A DNA stretch of 46,553 nucleotides from Escherichia phage vB_EcoS_IME542, in the sequence record MK372342. One strand, given 5' to 3'. Position numbers and translations under genes: made by a program. Shown here one piece after another: positions 2,543 through 42,787 of this stretch. How positions within the stretch are numbered: the stretch's first letter is position 1; each line of letters opens with the position of its first letter. The notes beneath the pieces were generated by a model. That model searched no databases, had not been told where the DNA came from, and saw only the letters and a list, made by a program, of their open reading frames with translations.

Positions 2543-4537
2543 ATGCTTCCAGTAGAGCGCTTAGTAGCCAACTTTGATCAAGAGAAGATTAAGCAGATTC
2601 AGAAGGATTATCAGTTTGGAGAAATCACGCCATACCCATTCCAGTGCGTGACATTCGACCAAATAGGTAAGCACATCGCTAAGTACGAAGCGCCATTCAT
2701 AGCAGACCTGTCGGTATCGGCAGGTAAGACAATCATTCTTGCCATGATTGGTAAACGCATGGAGCAGCTTGGCCTTCCTTACATGGTGCTTTCTCGCCAG
2801 TCAGAAATCATCAGCCAGAATGCTGAAGAACTCCGTAACTTCGGTATCCGTAATAGCGTATATTGCGCTGGCCTTAACGTTAAATCTGTTTACTACCCAA
2901 CTATAGTGGCAAGTGAAGGAACGGCGGCAAACGGCTTGTTCAAGGGGCTTGGTGACTATGTTCCGGCAGTTATCGCTATTGATGAGTGTCACATGCTAAA
3001 TCATATGGATATTGTCGAAGCCGAAGAGAACGAGGAAACGTTTGAGCAGATGAGCACCGCAAAAGGTGAGATGGTTTTCAAGGATGGTGAATACACGGGG
3101 TTAACTGGTACAGGTCGTTCGCAATACACTTTAATCATTACAGAGATGAAACGCCGTTGCCGTGAGAAATACAAGCGAGAACTACGTATCTTTGGTCTCA
3201 CTGGTAGCCCATACCGTGATAACAATCATATCGTGGTAAGTAATCCTAACATTCGAGGATTTTGGCGTAAGACGGTTATGCAGGTTCCAACCAATTACCT
3301 GGTGGATTTGGGTTTTGTTGTCCCAACTGTTTACGGTGAGGTTGGTGATTTGGGTTATGATCTTGCTGAATTTGCGCCAGATGGTGATGATGGAATCAAA
3401 GACTTCAGTAAGAAAGAAATGGATGCGATGCAGGAAAAAATTCATCAAAACCAGTCCATGACGCAAAAGATTATGCAGTTCGCAGCCAAGTTTATGGAAA
3501 CTCGTAACGCAGCGCTAGTAACTTGTTCAGGCAAGCGGCATTGCGAGGAGGCAGCCGCGGCGCTTCCTGATGGCGTAACCTGGGCTATAGTAACTGACTC
3601 TACTGGTGAGAAAAAACGTCGTGAGATTCTTTCTGACGCAGCTGAAGGTAAGTATAAATTCATCTTTCAGATTGGTTGTCTCACAACCGGCGTGAACGTC
3701 CCGCCATGGGATACGTCAATAATTCTTCGGAAGGTTGGAAGCATCACGTTATTGATTCAACTTTTGGGGCGAGGTATGCGGATTCTTAAGAAGAAGCATA
3801 AGGAAATGGGAATGGTTAAGGATGATCACGTGGTGCTGGACTTCGCTGGTACTCTTGATGATATGGCAGAATTGTACTTTGACCCAATTATAGAGGAGGT
3901 GCAAGACCAGAAATTCAAGTCTTCTAGTAAAGGTGGTGACGAGCCAAGGGTATGTCCAGCTTGTAGCTATGAGAACTCGCCATTTGCTCGTCGTTGTAAT
4001 AATGTTATCGAAGGTAAAAGGTGTGAGCACTTTTTTCAGTTTCGTACCTGTGATGATATTGAAGACACGCAGACAAAAGTTACTATTAAGAAAGGTTGTG
4101 GTGAGAAGAATGATATTGCTGCTAAAAACTGCCGTTGCTGCGGAGAAATGCTTATTGACCCTAACGCAAAGCTGTCTGGAAAGATGTATCGACAAGGGGA
4201 TTGGTTGAGAGTTTACGGATTCAGTATTGGGTTAACTAAAAACCAAAACGGGATCGTTGCTCGCTATGAAATCATGGCTCACAGCGGTGACAGGTTTGTT
4301 GCTTACGAAACTTTCTTTCCAGAGAGTGATCATCGCGTTTGCTCTGTGAAGTGGAAGGCGTTTTGCCAAACTCACATCGCTAACAAAACAGAAGCATTTC
4401 GCATCGGGAGACTGCGTAATGCAAGAATGATTATGACTAACGCAAGTCAATTTCGTGAGCCTTTGCGGGTGACTCATAGAAAAAATCAGAAAGGTCAGGA
4501 TATCATTGCAAACAAATCTTTTACTATGGAGGATTGA
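2543..4537 (+). CDS. SF2 (DExH-type) helicase with C-terminal zinc-ribbon region
   Basis: Walker A VSAGKT, motif II IDECH, C-terminal CPACSY...CRCCG cysteine pairs; 664 aa. Confidence 0.7.
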   Translation: MLPVERLVANFDQEKIKQIQKDYQFGEITPYPFQCVTFDQIGKHIAKYEAPFIADLSVSAGKTIILAMIGKRMEQLGLPYMVLSRQSEIISQNAEELRNFGIRNSVYCAGLNVKSVYYPTIVASEGTAANGLFKGLGDYVPAVIAIDECHMLNHMDIVEAEENEETFEQMSTAKGEMVFKDGEYTGLTGTGRSQYTLIITEMKRRCREKYKRELRIFGLTGSPYRDNNHIVVSNPNIRGFWRKTVMQVPTNYLVDLGFVVPTVYGEVGDLGYDLAEFAPDGDDGIKDFSKKEMDAMQEKIHQNQSMTQKIMQFAAKFMETRNAALVTCSGKRHCEEAAAALPDGVTWAIVTDSTGEKKRREILSDAAEGKYKFIFQIGCLTTGVNVPPWDTSIILRKVGSITLLIQLLGRGMRILKKKHKEMGMVKDDHVVLDFAGTLDDMAELYFDPIIEEVQDQKFKSSSKGGDEPRVCPACSYENSPFARRCNNVIEGKRCEHFFQFRTCDDIEDTQTKVTIKKGCGEKNDIAAKNCRCCGEMLIDPNAKLSGKMYRQGDWLRVYGFSIGLTKNQNGIVARYEIMAHSGDRFVAYETFFPESDHRVCSVKWKAFCQTHIANKTEAFRIGRLRNARMIMTNASQFREPLRVTHRKNQKGQDIIANKSFTMED

Positions 4538-13285: not shown

Positions 13286-13305
13286 TTCGTTGGATTTATT
13301 GATTC

Positions 13306-13400
13306 TTGCAGATATTGCAATGATTCACCTCATTATTGCACATATAGCAATATTGTATCTGATGCAATGATGTTTTTGATTGTTGCGAATTTAGCAATTA
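13306..13400. repeat. cluster of short WWGCAAT motifs (ATTGCAAT, ATAGCAAT, GATGCAAT, TTAGCAAT, TTGCAC, TTGCGAAT) in divergent control region
   Basis: At least six copies within ~100 bp read directly; ATTGCAAT is itself palindromic. Confidence 0.45.
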
Positions 13401-13549
13401 TTTGTGTGGGAGTGAATGAATAGAGGAAGGACTACCATACAAGTTGATTTTGATTCTGGCTGAGCCATTTTGGATGTACACGTTACCGAAGTTATGTTGT
13501 GTAGATGCACCCACCCTCCGTAGGAATGCTGTACGCCTATAACGCGCAA

Positions 13550-13635
13550 TTACGCAATGGTTACATAATAATATCTATATATATCAACCTTTTACTTTAT
13601 TATTATTATTATTATTATATATATGTATATCTTGT
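13550..13635 (+). repeat. copy A of ~85 bp direct repeat with (TTA)7 microsatellite in divergent non-coding region
   Basis: TTACGCAATGGTTACATAATAATATCTATATATATCAACCTTTTACT(TTA)n... nearly identical to 40753..40835. Confidence 0.7.
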
Positions 13636-13800
13636 ATATCTGTCATATGGGGAGGGTCGATAGTTTTTTATGAAAATGACTATATTTATCTATATTAATA
13701 TATATAGGTATACCCCCGACATTTCCGCGGAAATTCATACACACGACATTTACACCGCTTCTGGCGCGGCTCTCAGAGTGGTTTGGCGTATCTGGCTGAA

Positions 13801-13846
13801 AATAACATGAGATAACACTTGATAACATGTAGATGTGTGATACTAT
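13801..13846 (+). promoter_or_regulatory. candidate early promoter: three phased 10-bp repeats (AATAACATGA GATAACACTT GATAACATGT), -35 TTGATA, 16 nt spacer, extended -10 TGaTACTAT
   Basis: Read directly; about 40 nt upstream of RBS AGGAG and start 13889. Confidence 0.5.
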
Positions 13847-13888
13847 GGATGCATCTTAACGAAGAGCAACCAATCAGGAGTAATAAGA

Positions 13889-14407
13889 ATGTCAGAACGT
13901 AAAGAAGCAGTAAGTCTTGGTGAAGTAGCTCGCTACATGGCGACTCAGGCTTTAAATAGCGACACGAAATCATTTGCAGTACCAGTGCGTATGATTGTTC
14001 GCCAGGTGTACGGGCTTAGCAAGGAGGAAATTAGCAAGGTTTATGATGAAGACCTTAAGCCGGATGGTAAGTACAATCTCAATAAGCTGAAGTCCTCATA
14101 CGTTTCAAACACAGTAAGTCGCATGCCTGAAATTAAGGCTGCAAACGTCAGGTCCATGTTCTCGATAAAGGATATGGAGTTTAATGGTGAGGAGGTTCGT
14201 TCTGCGGTAATCTCGCTTGTTCCTGGTGCAATCAATCATGGCTCACGAAGCAAAGCAGGGGAAGAGAGGGAGGCGGCTATCATTGAGAAGTTCAAGAAGC
14301 GACTTCTTGCAGTTACTCCGAGCGTAATCCACCTGAAAGGCGAGGAGCTTAATGGCGCAATGTTCGCACTAACCGCTTACCAGGAACTTATCAAGGAGAC
14401 CAAATAA
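13889..14407 (+). CDS. hypothetical early protein (first gene of plus-strand early operon)
   Basis: 172 aa; AGGAG RBS 8 nt upstream. Confidence 0.55.
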   Translation: MSERKEAVSLGEVARYMATQALNSDTKSFAVPVRMIVRQVYGLSKEEISKVYDEDLKPDGKYNLNKLKSSYVSNTVSRMPEIKAANVRSMFSIKDMEFNGEEVRSAVISLVPGAINHGSRSKAGEEREAAIIEKFKKRLLAVTPSVIHLKGEELNGAMFALTAYQELIKETK

Positions 14408-20311: not shown

Positions 20312-20836
20312 ATGATTAAGCGAACTGAAATTTACGATATAGCAATAGATTATCTTACATACGACGGTGTTAATGTTTTATGGAAGAAGAAGATAAAAAA
20401 GAGTAAGTACTACCCTGGAGATGTTGCTGGAACAATTGACTTTCAGGGGTATATTAGGGTTGCTCTATTCAGAAAACCAGTAATGGCGCACAGGTTCGCT
20501 TGGGAGTTTATTAATGGACCAATACCTGACGGTATGCAAGTTGACCATATAAACCACAACAGGTCCGATAATAGAATTGAGAACTTAAGGTTAGTCACCC
20601 ATCATGAGAACTCAGTAAACATAAAGATGCCGAAGAACAACACATCTGGTCACATTGGCGTTCACTACAATAAAAACAGGGGGACCTGGCAAGCTTCGAT
20701 AGGTGGGCGCAACAAAGAAACTCATGAGCATCTTGGGTGTTTTCACAACAGGGAGGACGCAATAAAGGCAAGAAAGATAGCTGAGATTAGGCTTGGTTAT
20801 CACAAAAACCATGGCAAGACAGATGATGAAATCTGA
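20312..20836 (+). CDS. HNH homing endonuclease, paralog 2 of 5 (between terminase and portal)
   Basis: VDHINHNRSDNRIENLRLVT HNH motif, C-terminal GYHKNHGK. Confidence 0.85.
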   Translation: MIKRTEIYDIAIDYLTYDGVNVLWKKKIKKSKYYPGDVAGTIDFQGYIRVALFRKPVMAHRFAWEFINGPIPDGMQVDHINHNRSDNRIENLRLVTHHENSVNIKMPKNNTSGHIGVHYNKNRGTWQASIGGRNKETHEHLGCFHNREDAIKARKIAEIRLGYHKNHGKTDDEI

Positions 20837-20844
20837 GTTACAAT

Positions 20845-20868
20845 AGCCCCACATGGGGCTTTTTTTAT
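20845..20868 (+). terminator. rho-independent terminator
   Basis: AGCCCC-acat-GGGGCT followed by TTTTTTT. Confidence 0.7.
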
Positions 20869-20880
20869 TGGAGAAATGCA

Positions 20881-32959: not shown

Positions 32960-33430
32960 ATGAACTGGAATGATATTTTTGATTATAGAAATGGCGTTCT
33001 TTATTGGAAGATAAAGCCAGCAATACAATACAATATTGGCGATGTTGCTGGTTTCTTTTGTGAAAAGAGAGGTTACATAATCGTTCAATACAAGCGTGTA
33101 AAGGTAATGGCCCATAGGGTTGTATGGGAAATGTTTAATGGAAGAATAGCTGATGACATGGAAATTGATCACATTGACCACTCTAGAAAAAACAACAACA
33201 TATCAAACATAAGACTGGTAACGAAGAGTGATAACATGAAAAACAAAAGCATGTACTCATCAAATAAAACTGGCGTTGTCGTGGTTAGTTACTGCAAAAC
33301 AAAGAAAAAATTTATATCAAAGATAGGTAAGAGAATTCTATTAACAACAAGCAATTTTGAAGAGGCTGTAAAAGCGAGAAAAAGCGCAGAGATAGCCCTT
33401 AATTATCACAAAAATCACGGGGGTAAATAA
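32960..33430 (+). CDS. HNH homing endonuclease, paralog 3 of 5 (between tape measure and gpM-like gene)
   Basis: MNWNDIFDYRNGVLYWKIK..., EIDHIDHSRKNNNISNIRLVT, C-terminal NYHKNHGGK; AT-rich codon usage. Confidence 0.85.
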   Translation: MNWNDIFDYRNGVLYWKIKPAIQYNIGDVAGFFCEKRGYIIVQYKRVKVMAHRVVWEMFNGRIADDMEIDHIDHSRKNNNISNIRLVTKSDNMKNKSMYSSNKTGVVVVSYCKTKKKFISKIGKRILLTTSNFEEAVKARKSAEIALNYHKNHGGK

Positions 33431-33431
33431 T

Positions 33432-33782
33432 ATGGCTCTAGATACGTTTAATTTTTGCACTCAGATTCAAAATGGAGGCGCGACATTCTCTAACACCAAT
33501 AACGTGCGTATTGTTAGCTTTGGCAATGGTTATGAACAAAGAGGGACGGGAGGATACCGCAGCAATAAGCGCAGCTACCAGATGACTTACACAAACAAGA
33601 ACTGGCGTGAGGTTATGGATTTCTGTTTCAATCACATCATCACACCATTCTTCTGGAGAACACCGCAAGGCGATACTTCTATGTTTGTTATTCAGCAAGA
33701 TAGCATCAGTGTAACGCCATTAAGTAGCGAAGTTCAGACTGTAAGCATGCAATTCGTGGAAGTCTTTAGCTCAATGCGTTAA
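33432..33782 (+). CDS. minor tail protein, lambda gpM-like
   Basis: 116 aa; segments SFGNGYEQR and FFWRTP parallel lambda gpM. Confidence 0.55.
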   Translation: MALDTFNFCTQIQNGGATFSNTNNVRIVSFGNGYEQRGTGGYRSNKRSYQMTYTNKNWREVMDFCFNHIITPFFWRTPQGDTSMFVIQQDSISVTPLSSEVQTVSMQFVEVFSSMR

Positions 33783-33786
33783 ACTA

Positions 33787-33810
33787 AGCCCCATTAGGGG
33801 CTTTTTTTAT
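33787..33810 (+). terminator. rho-independent terminator-like hairpin
   Basis: AGCCCC-atta-GGGGCT followed by TTTTTTT. Confidence 0.6.
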
Positions 33811-33821
33811 TGGAGAAAATC

Positions 33822-39377: not shown

Positions 39378-39400
39378 AGCCCCCTTCTGGGGGCTTTTTT
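39378..39400. terminator. terminator hairpin between convergent J gene and minus-strand RBP gene
   Basis: AGCCCCC-ttct-GGGGGCT followed by TTTTTT. Confidence 0.65.
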
Positions 39401-40370
39401 AGTACATGTTTGGTATGTACGGTAACCGCATTGAGATGTTGGTGTTGAATGGGAACCGCGCGCCAGACTGCGTTGAGTAGTTACCATAAACACTTCCTTT
39501 ATGCGCCCTAACCTGACCATTTGACATTGCAACGCCCTTGTATCTAAGGTTGTTGTATCTACCAGTAACCTCAACCATCGCGCCGCACCTTAGTATTGGG
39601 AAAAACCCATTACCTATTGATTGGTATGAGTTGGAAAGCTGGAGGAATCCACTTAGTACAAAAGGTCGCTTGACGCTGGAAAACACTATCTGGCCAGAGG
39701 CGTTTGACATTGTTAAACCAGGCCCTGCGGTTGGTGCTGTATTGTTGAATATAACAAGATCGATAGTTACTGATGCTGATACATTATCAATTCCTGTGTA
39801 GGTATTGTTTCTACATAGTATTCTTTTCCCGTCAAACTCAAGGGTGACATTTGGGTTATTCCACCTTCCAAACGGTATTCCAGTCATCGGGAGTGTATAG
39901 CTTCCATTCACAGTCACAGTTCCGACATACTGAGCAGTCAGGAGTCTACTGTTTGATGTTATTGCAGTGAAGTTAGTCGAATCACTGACAAATATCCCCT
40001 CACTGCCTGGTGATTCACCAAGAACCTCAAAACCTTGCGCACCAAATCCAATCAAACGTCCTGATGAGCCGTTAAAGTTACCTATACTTATCCTTCCAGT
40101 TGAGTTATTGACCCTGGAAAATCCATTCATGAAATAAACCTCAGGTATGAAGTTGAAGTCATAAACGTCAATAGCCTTTGTCGGCAATATGAAGGCCTCA
40201 GATCCTTGAGTCATTGTTAGTCCGAAGTCTCTAGTGCCATTGGCGGAATTAAACGTGGAGTTACTGCTAAGGCTTCCTGTTACTGATGGCGCTCTTAAAC
40301 CTGCAGTTATCTCCATTCTCGGTCTTCCGTCATTCAAGTCTATCAAGATACCCTGAGGCATTATTTCCAC
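39399..40370 (-). CDS. putative receptor-binding protein (antisense, downstream of J)
   Basis: 323 aa Asn/Ser/Thr/Gly-rich protein; co-transcribed with upstream lipoprotein gene; call is by position and composition. Confidence 0.45.
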
Positions 40371-40591
40371 TCCTTGGTGCCATGATCTTTAACTGATCCA
40401 GAGAAGTTTTTGATACCATCCCAGCGGATATCTGTTTCACCTGAAGCTACAACTACACCTCCTTTCCATTTAGCAACACATGAGCCGTTAACTTCAGTCG
40501 CGCACCAACCGTCAGGTCGGGGTCCGGAAGAACAACCTACAGTCATGATTACTGCTGCCGCGATTATTGCTGATTTGATGAAGTTAGTCAT
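40361..40591 (-). CDS. small lipoprotein, candidate superinfection-exclusion (Cor/Llp-like) protein
   Basis: [22 protein letters not shown] signal peptide with lipobox; 76 aa; AAGGA RBS; boxed promoter upstream. Confidence 0.5.
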
Positions 40592-40609
40592 TTTGTATTC
40601 CTTAGTGAG

Positions 40610-40675
40610 TGTGTTTCGTTTCGATGGAGTAACTATAGCAAAGGATGATTACGGAGTCTTTAGCTATTCGTGCTA
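40610..40675 (-). promoter_or_regulatory. boxed promoter element (box TAGCAcgaatAGCTA, extended -10 TGcTATAGT, CATCGAAACGAAACAC)
   Basis: Read directly on minus strand. Confidence 0.55.
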
Positions 40676-40752
40676 TTGTATACGCGTAACCGATGTAACT
40701 CGGTGTATACAATCTCGTCCGCGGAAAATGGTATACGCGCTGTTACGCCTAG

Positions 40753-40835
40753 TTACGCATTAGTTACATTAAAATATCTATATATATCAACCTTTTACTC
40801 TTATTATTATTATTATTATATATTACTGTGTATAT
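40753..40835 (+). repeat. copy B of ~85 bp direct repeat with (TTA)5, in second divergent non-coding region; flanked by GTATAC-containing repeats
   Basis: TTACGCATTAGTTACATTAAAATATCTATATATATCAACCTTTTACTC(TTA)n; matches 13550..13635. Confidence 0.7.
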
Positions 40836-40986
40836 CATGTAACTACTTCTATAGAGTGTTCCGGTTATAATTTTAATATCATGTGGATTTATACAGTATT
40901 GCGCGGCAGCTATACCGATGCACCCTTAGCGAGAAACGGTATACACGATATACACACTAGTTACATTAAGCTATATCTGGGCCGAG

Positions 40987-41334
40987 ATGCCAGAAAGCGT
41001 AACCATTGGCAATGTCTACACGAAATTACAAGGATTCACGCGTAAGTATGAGTCAACGATTGGCAAAACCAATTGGACTAGCTACCGTGCCGAATATATA
41101 GTTAACCCATCGAAAGCAAACAACCAGAGAGATAGAGAAATGACCTACTACATTATCAAAGAGAAAAACAACGCACTGTTCGGCGATTGCTACTTTGGTG
41201 GCCCTGCTGGATACACAACGGATAAAAACGAGGCTGACAGATTCGAGACCAAAGAAGAAGCCCGCGATGTTCTGACCGGGTGCTTCACTGAAGAAGATTT
41301 GAAATCTGTTAAGGTAGTTAAGGTTAAGGAATAA
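40987..41334 (+). CDS. hypothetical protein (alternative start ATG 41140 with purine-rich RBS)
   Basis: 115 aa ORF; no good RBS at 40987. Confidence 0.4.
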   Translation: MPESVTIGNVYTKLQGFTRKYESTIGKTNWTSYRAEYIVNPSKANNQRDREMTYYIIKEKNNALFGDCYFGGPAGYTTDKNEADRFETKEEARDVLTGCFTEEDLKSVKVVKVKE

Positions 41335-42309: not shown

Positions 42310-42787
42310 AATTTTTGATTACGATGGGGTTAATTTGATATGGAAGATAATGAGCGGAACTAGAGGTTGCATTGGTAAAGTTGCTGGAAATGTAAGTAAG
42401 ACTAACGGTTATGTAAGGTTGAGGTACGATGGCAGGGAGCACAAGGTTCACAGAATTATATTGGATATCGTAAATGGTAAAATACCTAGTGGTTTATTTG
42501 TTGATCACATAAATCACATTAGAAATGATAACAGGATTGAGAACTTGCGATTGGTGAATAGGCAAGGAAATGCCATGAATCAGTCATTGAGAAAAACAAA
42601 CAAAACCGGAGTTCTGGGTGTTAGTTGGGTGCCAAGGCTATCAAAATATGTAGCAAGAATGGGTGTGGATGGTTACGAGTATCACATTGGGTGTTTTGAC
42701 TCAATCGAGGAAGCCGCTAGAGCAAGAAAAAGCGAAGAGGTTAAGTTGGGATTTCATAGAAATCACGGAAATAGCACAAATTGCTAA
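42296..42787 (+). CDS. HNH homing endonuclease, paralog 4 of 5
   Basis: MNWSEIFDYDGVNLIWKIM..., VDHINHIRNDNRIENLRLVN, C-terminal GFHRNHGN; overlaps end of exonuclease gene by 14 nt. Confidence 0.85.
   Translation: MNWSEIFDYDGVNLIWKIMSGTRGCIGKVAGNVSKTNGYVRLRYDGREHKVHRIILDIVNGKIPSGLFVDHINHIRNDNRIENLRLVNRQGNAMNQSLRKTNKTGVLGVSWVPRLSKYVARMGVDGYEYHIGCFDSIEEAARARKSEEVKLGFHRNHGNSTNC

Follow-up and report, generated by a model that had tools for sequence, protein, structure and literature searches.

What does the repeat-rich DNA between two diverging operons do in Escherichia phage vB_EcoS_IME542? T1-like phages (family Drexlerviridae) are well known as contaminants of laboratories and fermentations and are often considered for therapy. 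No replication origin has been located in them (PMC7718038, PMC11447400). In the literature on T1-like phages we found no transcript-start, replication-intermediate, binding or origin data for any relative. In the window (the whole stretch of DNA analysed, 46,553 nucleotides of sequence record MK372342), an earlier note made from the letters alone had singled out positions 40676-40986 as a divergent control region that may be a second regulatory or replication-related site. We find there a compact element of short repeats, an IHF-type site and a predicted unwinding stretch. The combination is of a familiar kind; we found no earlier account of this element itself, and the genome descriptions of phages SU57, TLS, MSK, Rogue1 and AHP make no mention of it. 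It is a precise, testable candidate for the missing piece in the replication and early control of these phages.

The locus is 99.2% identical to that of Escherichia phage TR1 and 78-90% identical to those of about 120 other Rtp/T1-like Drexlerviridae coliphages, mostly Braunvirinae; the window is a Braunvirinae (Drexlerviridae) phage. Two further records, MG065688 (Campylobacter phage A110b) and PP134917 (Pseudomonas phage PsgS01F), carry the Braunvirinae locus at 83-90% identity and are likely coliphage contaminants or cases of host mislabelling. The region lies between a minus-strand lipoprotein/RBP operon and a plus-strand recombination operon, with flanking genes as the earlier note had described them (Table 1). 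HNH endonuclease genes of the window (20753-20876, 33359-33818, 42707-42768) have a 62-nt 3' segment in common, and downstream of two of them lies the same terminator-like hairpin with a ribosome-binding site (AGCCCCA..GGGGCTTTTTTTATTGGAGAAA), an arrangement that recalls mobile cassettes.

The stretch singled out ends at 40986, before an ATG at 40987 that is not a conserved gene start, and this right boundary we had to move. Positions 40987-41139 are open in the window as part of a 115-codon ORF and are annotated as coding in TR1, Rtp and EC3a. The ORF carries in-frame stops in Msk, IME253, RobRod40, DTL, an IMG/VR contig and the Nouzillyvirus group, is frameshifted in 2004V, and lacks its ATG in others. 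The conserved gene to the right is a small one on the plus strand, from ATG 41140 to 41334 (64 aa), with a Shine-Dalgarno sequence upstream, and the annotation of the SU57 record covers only a short gene matching this ATG. Since the ORF at 40987 is disrupted in most relatives, the non-coding region extends from 40592 to 41139 (548 bp); in the alignment of relatives, 3-periodicity is absent among the variable sites of 40981-41073. That the region is coding (ORF 40670-40870 or 40987-41139) or specifies a structured non-coding RNA is scarcely credible. In several relatives a plus-strand frame runs open across the core (40676-40900), where some depositors placed ORFs, but the variable sites show no codon periodicity (23/18/26) and the relatives differ by 1-nt and 4-nt indels and by stops. 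As to RNA, no Rfam match rose above noise, and the folding energy is no better than that of shuffled sequences on either strand (z = -0.03 and -1.5).

All of the repeats listed in the earlier note are present: GTATAC at 40678, 40705, 40731 and 40939, GTTACGC at 40742 and 40752, and GTTACATTAA at 40763 and 40960. GTATAC shows no genome-wide enrichment (9 in the window versus 7.2 expected); four of the nine fall within 262 bp, where a Poisson estimate gives 0.06 expected per 311 bp (P ~5e-7). Likewise, four of the window's five copies of AGTTACAT lie at 40693-40966. Tandem Repeats Finder independently returned two arrays, of period 10 at 40734-40767 (3.3 copies) and of period 9 at 40936-40955, along with the TTA run (40801-40825). 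The TTA run, previously given as (TTA)5, is a perfect (TTA)6 at 40801-40818.

The palindrome GTATAC, which had been taken as the repeat unit, is not itself conserved: its third copy is ATATAC in most relatives, and its first is GTTAC in the EC3a/2004V/AugustePiccard group. The conserved unit is a hexamer, WTACRY, of which the GTATAC and GTTAC motifs are variants. Fifteen WTACRY hexamers occur in the 400 bp from 40676 to 41075 versus 1.65 expected, ten of them in the shared core; because the pattern was defined after the sequence had been inspected, P-values for this enrichment are optimistic. Four of these iterons form a direct array with 10-11 bp spacing that takes in the third GTATAC, both GTTACGC motifs and the first GTTACATTAA. 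An inverted pair that ends the A+T tract opposes this four-unit array, and the core iterons converge, in phased arrays, on the tract between them. The right conserved block takes in the fourth GTATAC together with the second GTTACATTAA; it also includes a partial third copy of the array (40951-40974 versus 40754-40777). The hexamers may resemble OmpR/ArcA-type direct-repeat sites and the P4 iteron.

Table 1. Features of the non-coding region, its flanks and related sites (window coordinates).
Feature	Position	Strand	Remarks
DUF6453 gene	39399-40370	-	left flank
Phage_lipoprotein-family gene	40361-40591	-	left flank
Leftward promoter-type cassette, lipoprotein/RBP operon	40612-40677	-	21-nt repeat, TATAGT, leader CATCGAAACGAAAC
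Left iteron group	40680 (+), 40684 (-), 40693 (-), 40703 (-); span 40680-40708		contains first two GTATAC; all kept in 21/21 genomes
Copy B of paralogous element	40727-40841	+	
Phased direct array	40733, 40743, 40753, 40764; span 40733-40769	+	ATACGC, TTACGC, TTACGC, TTACAT
A+T tract	40770-40827		58 bp; IHF consensus and (TTA)6-TATAT
IHF consensus TATCAACCTTTTA	40785-40797		perfect match to WATCAANNNNTTR; A/T run upstream; at left edge of tract
(TTA)6-TATAT	40801-40825		
Closing inverted pair	40828, 40837; span 40828-40842	-	ATACAC, TTACAT; kept in 19/21 genomes
Nearly invariant block	40843-40900		Braunvirinae/Nouzillyvirus-specific; perfect TATAAT at 40866-40871 without a usable -35
Hypervariable spacer	40901-40912		0 invariant columns
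Right conserved block	40913-40980	+	inverted repeat 40911-26 / 40928-43; iteron trio at 40941, 40950, 40961
Open but non-coding stretch	40981-41073		two more inverted iterons; palindrome CCAATTGG at 41069-41076
Outlying iterons	40997, 41040	-	
Rightward promoter, recombination operon	41074-41139	+	TGGACT-17-TATAGT (41074-41102), start near 41109, leader CATCGAAAGCAAAC
Small gene, exonuclease VIII, HNH endonuclease, Erf recombinase		+	right flank
Copy A of paralogous element	13525-13636	+	
21-nt repeat copies	458, 5186, 7514, 11001 (-), 11771 (-), 12915 (-), 13286 (-), 14938, 15234, 15672, 16312, 28872, 32888, 40676 (-), 42771		

We aligned the region in 22 genomes from Braunvirinae, Nouzillyvirus and Rogunavirinae. 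The core is 88-96% identical to the window in 16 Braunvirinae/Nouzillyvirus genomes (about 93% across genera) and 78-84% identical in Rogunavirinae, compared with 84-86% for the exonuclease VIII gene, 72-78% for the lipoprotein gene and 66-68% for the DUF6453 gene. The share of invariant columns among 17 Braunvirinae/Nouzillyvirus genomes is 68% in the core versus 0-7% in the two flanking promoter/leader segments, and the element is the locus's best-conserved non-coding DNA across several genera. The earlier note had made its reading depend on conservation in related phages; the core exceeds even its flanking genes in this respect. Homology with Rogunavirinae stops at about 40854, after which other genes follow; the part common to all is about 40681-40854. 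The neighbours of the core vary (lipoprotein gene, Rha-type gene or small ORFs), the left side being taken either by the lipoprotein promoter or by a Rha-type gene with its own 21-nt-repeat promoter; the core keeps its boundaries and travels as a unit despite these changes. Scans of IMG/VR gave nine and six loci only, all or mostly from the same phages.

Within the core, conservation follows the hexamers. In the relatives, 86% of hexamer positions are invariant versus 30% of other non-AT positions (Mann-Whitney P = 8.6e-9), and substitutions stay within WTACRY in 21/21 genomes for eight of the ten core iterons and in 19/21 for the other two (tolerated changes include ATACGC to ATACAC or TTACAC, GCGTAA to ACGTAA, and TTACAT to TTACAC). 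The phased array keeps all four iterons in 21/21 genomes, with changes falling in the spacers. Conservation and the iteron pattern reveal selection for protein binding but not what that binding serves, and the recombination genes are adjacent. The element could on these grounds be some other architectural site, such as a genome organiser, a recombination hot spot feeding RecE/Erf, or a target or decoy for a nucleoid protein; nothing positive speaks for any one of these, and we consider them improbable even taken together.

Beyond the aligned genomes, T1 keeps the architecture of the element with diverged sequence. Its 527-bp cor-recE spacer holds eight GTTAC/GTAAC motifs versus 1.06 expected, on both sides of about 75 bp of A+T DNA, and by eye the A+T tract is followed by GTATAT-C-N-TGTA, as in the window. 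In a Tempevirinae phage and a Klebsiella phage, the non-coding DNA is likewise about 500 bp long, with an A+T tract in its centre and other short repeats (GAACA/TGTTC; GCGCAACG). Such subfamily-specific repeats would fit a binding protein that evolves along with the phage.

The A+T tract contains an IHF consensus and the (TTA)6-TATAT run. The element also has a paralogue in the window, copy A, and the 13-mer TATCAACCTTTTA that carries the IHF consensus is identical in copies A and B. The surrounding 26 bp, ATATCTATATATATCAACCTTTTACT, match exactly between A and B in most of the Braunvirinae genomes examined; some A copies (those of Msk, TH30 and A110b) depart by one or a few bases. Across the window the IHF consensus shows no enrichment (5 versus 3.5 expected). 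Another palindrome takes its place in Rogunavirinae, and it is not evident in T1, so we propose the use of IHF for this subfamily only. By nearest-neighbour stability, no other stretch of duplex in the window is as unstable as copies A and B (z ~5; the next, ~3); in copy B the stretch is 40765-40824.

The two copies align over about 115 bp with three 1-nt gaps, including a 60-nt ungapped stretch that is 85% identical. The earlier note had recognised this shared repeat, which is real, and put its length at about 85 bp, which is too short; its suggested parallel with 13290-13890 is borne out well past that repeat. Exactly two copies are found in 7/7 complete genomes, always in the same two contexts: the lipoprotein/recE region and the diverging region that heads a set of small early-type ORFs. 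The second context adjoins the packaging end. PhageTerm placed the forward packaging start of phage MSK at 36,862 (PMC8421802), equivalent to window ~13435, and the SU57 record was opened at the inferred genome end (PMC7718038), equivalent to window ~13458. Copy A starts 70-90 bp to the right of these positions. The T1 record begins at its 2.8-kb terminal repeat and has ATTACGCC repeats and an A+T tract at 160-300.

These positions raise the question of a packaging-related role, in which iterons and IHF would form a platform for the small terminase subunit, with copy A serving pac and copy B a second or auxiliary site. Copy A lies downstream of the packaging start in the packaging direction, the T1 equivalent is close to the terminal repeat, and repeats flanking an IHF site are the layout of P1 pac and lambda cosB. 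In addition, three database records, NC_007291 (Jk06), MT446404 (TH30) and KC333879 (phiJLA23), start or stop inside region B; assembly or sequencing trouble is the simpler cause, and these ends are probably breaks in repeated, very A+T-rich DNA and not physical ends. No terminus has been reported at region B, and the mapped termini adjoin copy A only. Region B also lacks both the TTGCA/TGCAA cluster and the terminus-surrounding sequence that are specific to region A. Because this cluster occurs in region A only, the element common to A and B is probably not the packaging signal itself. Searches of 5,426 E. coli genomes and 72,556 plasmids gave no match to the core, although satellites borrowing a helper's packaging signal, for example, might have carried a copy there. 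Taken together, we regard a packaging function for the element as very unlikely.

Two further features of region A deserve mention. The TTGCA/TGCAA cluster lies at 13306-13367, just left of the packaging-end estimates (13435-13458), and the T1 record starts within a similar cluster; it is a candidate terminase recognition region of pac, a sequence not previously defined in these phages. At 13802-13846, three period-10 repeats (ATAACATGAG) overlap the window's strongest sigma-70-like promoter (TTGATA-16-TACTAT with a TG), upstream of the DUF7174 gene, and T1 has three GATTAACAC repeats in the equivalent place before TTGACA-17.

We next consider the promoters of the two operons. The leftward cassette adjoins the stretch 40676-40986 with a two-base overlap and consists of a 21-nt repeat at 40659-40677 (reverse complement AATAGCACGAATAGCTAAA), TATAGT at 40632-40637 and a leader of the same type as that of the rightward promoter. 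The rightward equivalent in T1, a Tempevirinae phage and a Klebsiella phage is a near-consensus TTGACT-16-TATAAT/TAAAAT. An earlier study described the 21-nt repeat for TLS and reported it from T1, Rtp and Rogue1 too, assigning it no function (PMC11447400). It is expected about 76 nt upstream of a start codon, along the direction of transcription, and 40659-40677 on the minus strand matches this T1-family repeat, aaATAGCACnnnTTGnTAAAA, about 70-85 nt upstream of ATG 40591. The rest of the element is not this repeat: one copy of the T1-like direct repeat adjoins it, and the repeat is a separate, already described family, distinct from the WTACRY/IHF/A+T element.

The repeat reads ATAGCAC-nnn-TTGCTAAA and has 15 copies in the window, about 12 of which head a cassette of about 85 nt made of the repeat, a TATAAT-like hexamer, 5 nt, CATCGAAACGA, a Shine-Dalgarno sequence and an ATG. 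It contains inverted half-sites, TAGCA-N5-TGCTA, centred near -42. Judged by eye, the variable 20 nt of the cassette can often fold into a 5-6 bp hairpin, with a stem sequence that changes from copy to copy, or into a stem enclosing the hexamer. This may point to a structural role, of which the published description of the repeat says nothing.

Divergent intergenic regions of phages are usually promoter/operator regions. The idea of a divergent control region holds here insofar as the DNA is non-coding and separates diverging operons; the operon promoters lie at its outer edges (40612-40677 and 41074-41102), so there is more to the central 400 bp than "the control region". The core might instead be an early promoter/operator module in its own right, with back-to-back host-type promoters in the A+T tract and WTACRY hexamers as operators through which a phage regulator would switch early transcription, the whole duplicated like lambda OL/OR. 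It has promoter-like matches: GTTACA-17-TATAAT on the minus strand (start ~40808), TTTACT...TATATT on the plus strand (start ~40830), and possibly TATAAT at 40866. Their placement agrees between copy A, copy B and AHP42, depositors predicted promoters there in EC3a and AHP42, and the phage encodes a Cro-like helix-turn-helix protein. The placement between diverging operons, with a second copy at another diverging region heading small early-type ORFs, also suits such a module.

Other points weigh against such a module. The matches score 9.9 (minus) and 8.3 (plus); 37% of composition-matched shuffles reach the best score, and the window has 3.3 hits per kb that score at least 8.3. The plus-strand spacer would be the TTA run, and relatives differ by 1-5 nt in the length of that run. 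The IHF site would also overlie the -35 of one promoter and the start of the transcribed region of the other. Each operon already has an edge promoter of its own 100-250 bp away, and the hexamer arrays, at 45 to >200 bp from these (40632-40660 and 41074-41102), do not overlap them as operators would. T1, Tempevirinae and Klebsiella phages have no strong promoter adjoining the A+T tract. Finally, the genuine promoter/leader segments of the alignment come nowhere near the continuous invariance seen here over about 200 bp. We regard a promoter/operator module as the main rival to the reading that we prefer, and doubt it.

Our preferred reading, which we advance tentatively, is that the central part (40678-40860), with accessory blocks reaching to about 41045, is a cis-acting site of protein assembly, an origin-type element of iterons, IHF and unwinding. 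What the analysis establishes is the layout of the element, its conservation, its duplex instability and its non-coding nature; we infer protein binding, the use of IHF, melting and a role in replication, which we favour over a regulatory one. At least three repeated sites in helical phase mark an iteron origin, and the element has four (WTACRY, 40733-40769); the easily melted A+T stretch that should adjoin them is at 40765-40824. The element also stands at the head of the recE-erf-ssb module. In our model, a sequence-specific protein, probably phage-encoded, would occupy the WTACRY hexamers, binding the four phased ones on one side of the 58-bp A+T tract and the two inverted ones on the other. 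Host IHF would bind TATCAACCTTTTA at the edge of the tract, bend the DNA and bring the arrays together, whereupon (TTA)6-TATAT, the genome's most easily opened DNA, would melt. The opened DNA could then give entry to the phage primase and to host helicase and polymerase, possibly via an R-loop or D-loop, and copy A, near the packaging end, might be a second origin or a helper site.

The protein complement bears on this origin-type reading. Among ten proteins scanned, we recognised a primase, a RadD-like helicase and the Cro-like helix-turn-helix protein, and no initiator protein or replicative hexameric helicase. The "ATP-dependent helicase" at 2543-4537, beside the primase, is a RadD-like SF2 repair helicase (PDB 6jde, E = 2.7e-34). 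As a classical initiator-iteron origin, the element therefore stands without its partner. An origin at this site may rely on a small phage protein, or on R-loop or D-loop entry of host enzymes. We rejected a DnaA-dependent origin: near-matches to the DnaA box show no enrichment (45 across the window versus 54 expected), and not one box is perfect. GC skew was likewise rejected as a replication signal, since it only mirrors gene orientation.

A bolder proposal is that T1-like phages start replication from paired, paralogous modules of hexamer array, IHF site and unwinding stretch, read by a small WTACRY-binding protein. One module would lie in the terminal redundancy beside pac and the other would head the recE-erf-ssb operon; their joint action would be that of an origin and its helper site, or would couple the start of replication to recombination and packaging. 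We offer this as a speculation, and think it unlikely. Whatever its function, an element of about 180 bp is a small target for origin, promoter and binding assays, and it could serve as a stable marker of Braunvirinae-type phages and as an engineering handle.

Several known systems share parts of this arrangement. Like P1 pac and lambda cosB, the element has short repeats on both sides of an IHF site, and copy A lies less than 100 bp from the packaging start; copy B differs from them in having neither a terminus nor the A-specific TTGCA cluster. The lambda OL/OR regions are likewise two related regions with site arrays heading early operons, in a phage that encodes Cro, as this one encodes a Cro-like protein. 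Their operators are palindromic, whereas the repeats here are mostly direct and phased and stand apart from the operons' own promoters. The transcription-primed origins T4 oriF/oriG, the T7 primary origin and ColE1 have an unwinding stretch beside promoter-like sequence, as here, and here too the phage is rich in recombination functions and has no obvious initiator. Those origins lack the dense iterons of the element, whose core has putative promoter activity only.

A further likeness in layout is to the iteron-type origins lambda ori, pSC101 and R6K gamma, which have phased short sites beside an A+T unwinding stretch and, like the element, stand in or beside a replication/recombination module; the latter two use IHF, with its site at the junction. 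Iteron origins use iterons of 17-22 bp, compared with 6-bp repeats at 9-11 bp spacing here, and go with an initiator gene and DnaA boxes, neither of which we recognised here; their activity is established, and that of the element is predicted. Two related cis sites per genome are also found in Bacillus phage SPP1 (oriL/oriR) and satellite phage P4 (ori/crr). These resemble the present case in having two distant paralogous elements of repeats and A+T DNA, in a pac-type genome of about 45 kb. Their binding proteins, G38P and alpha, are known, and one site lies in or near the gene for its protein; here, one copy stands instead beside pac.
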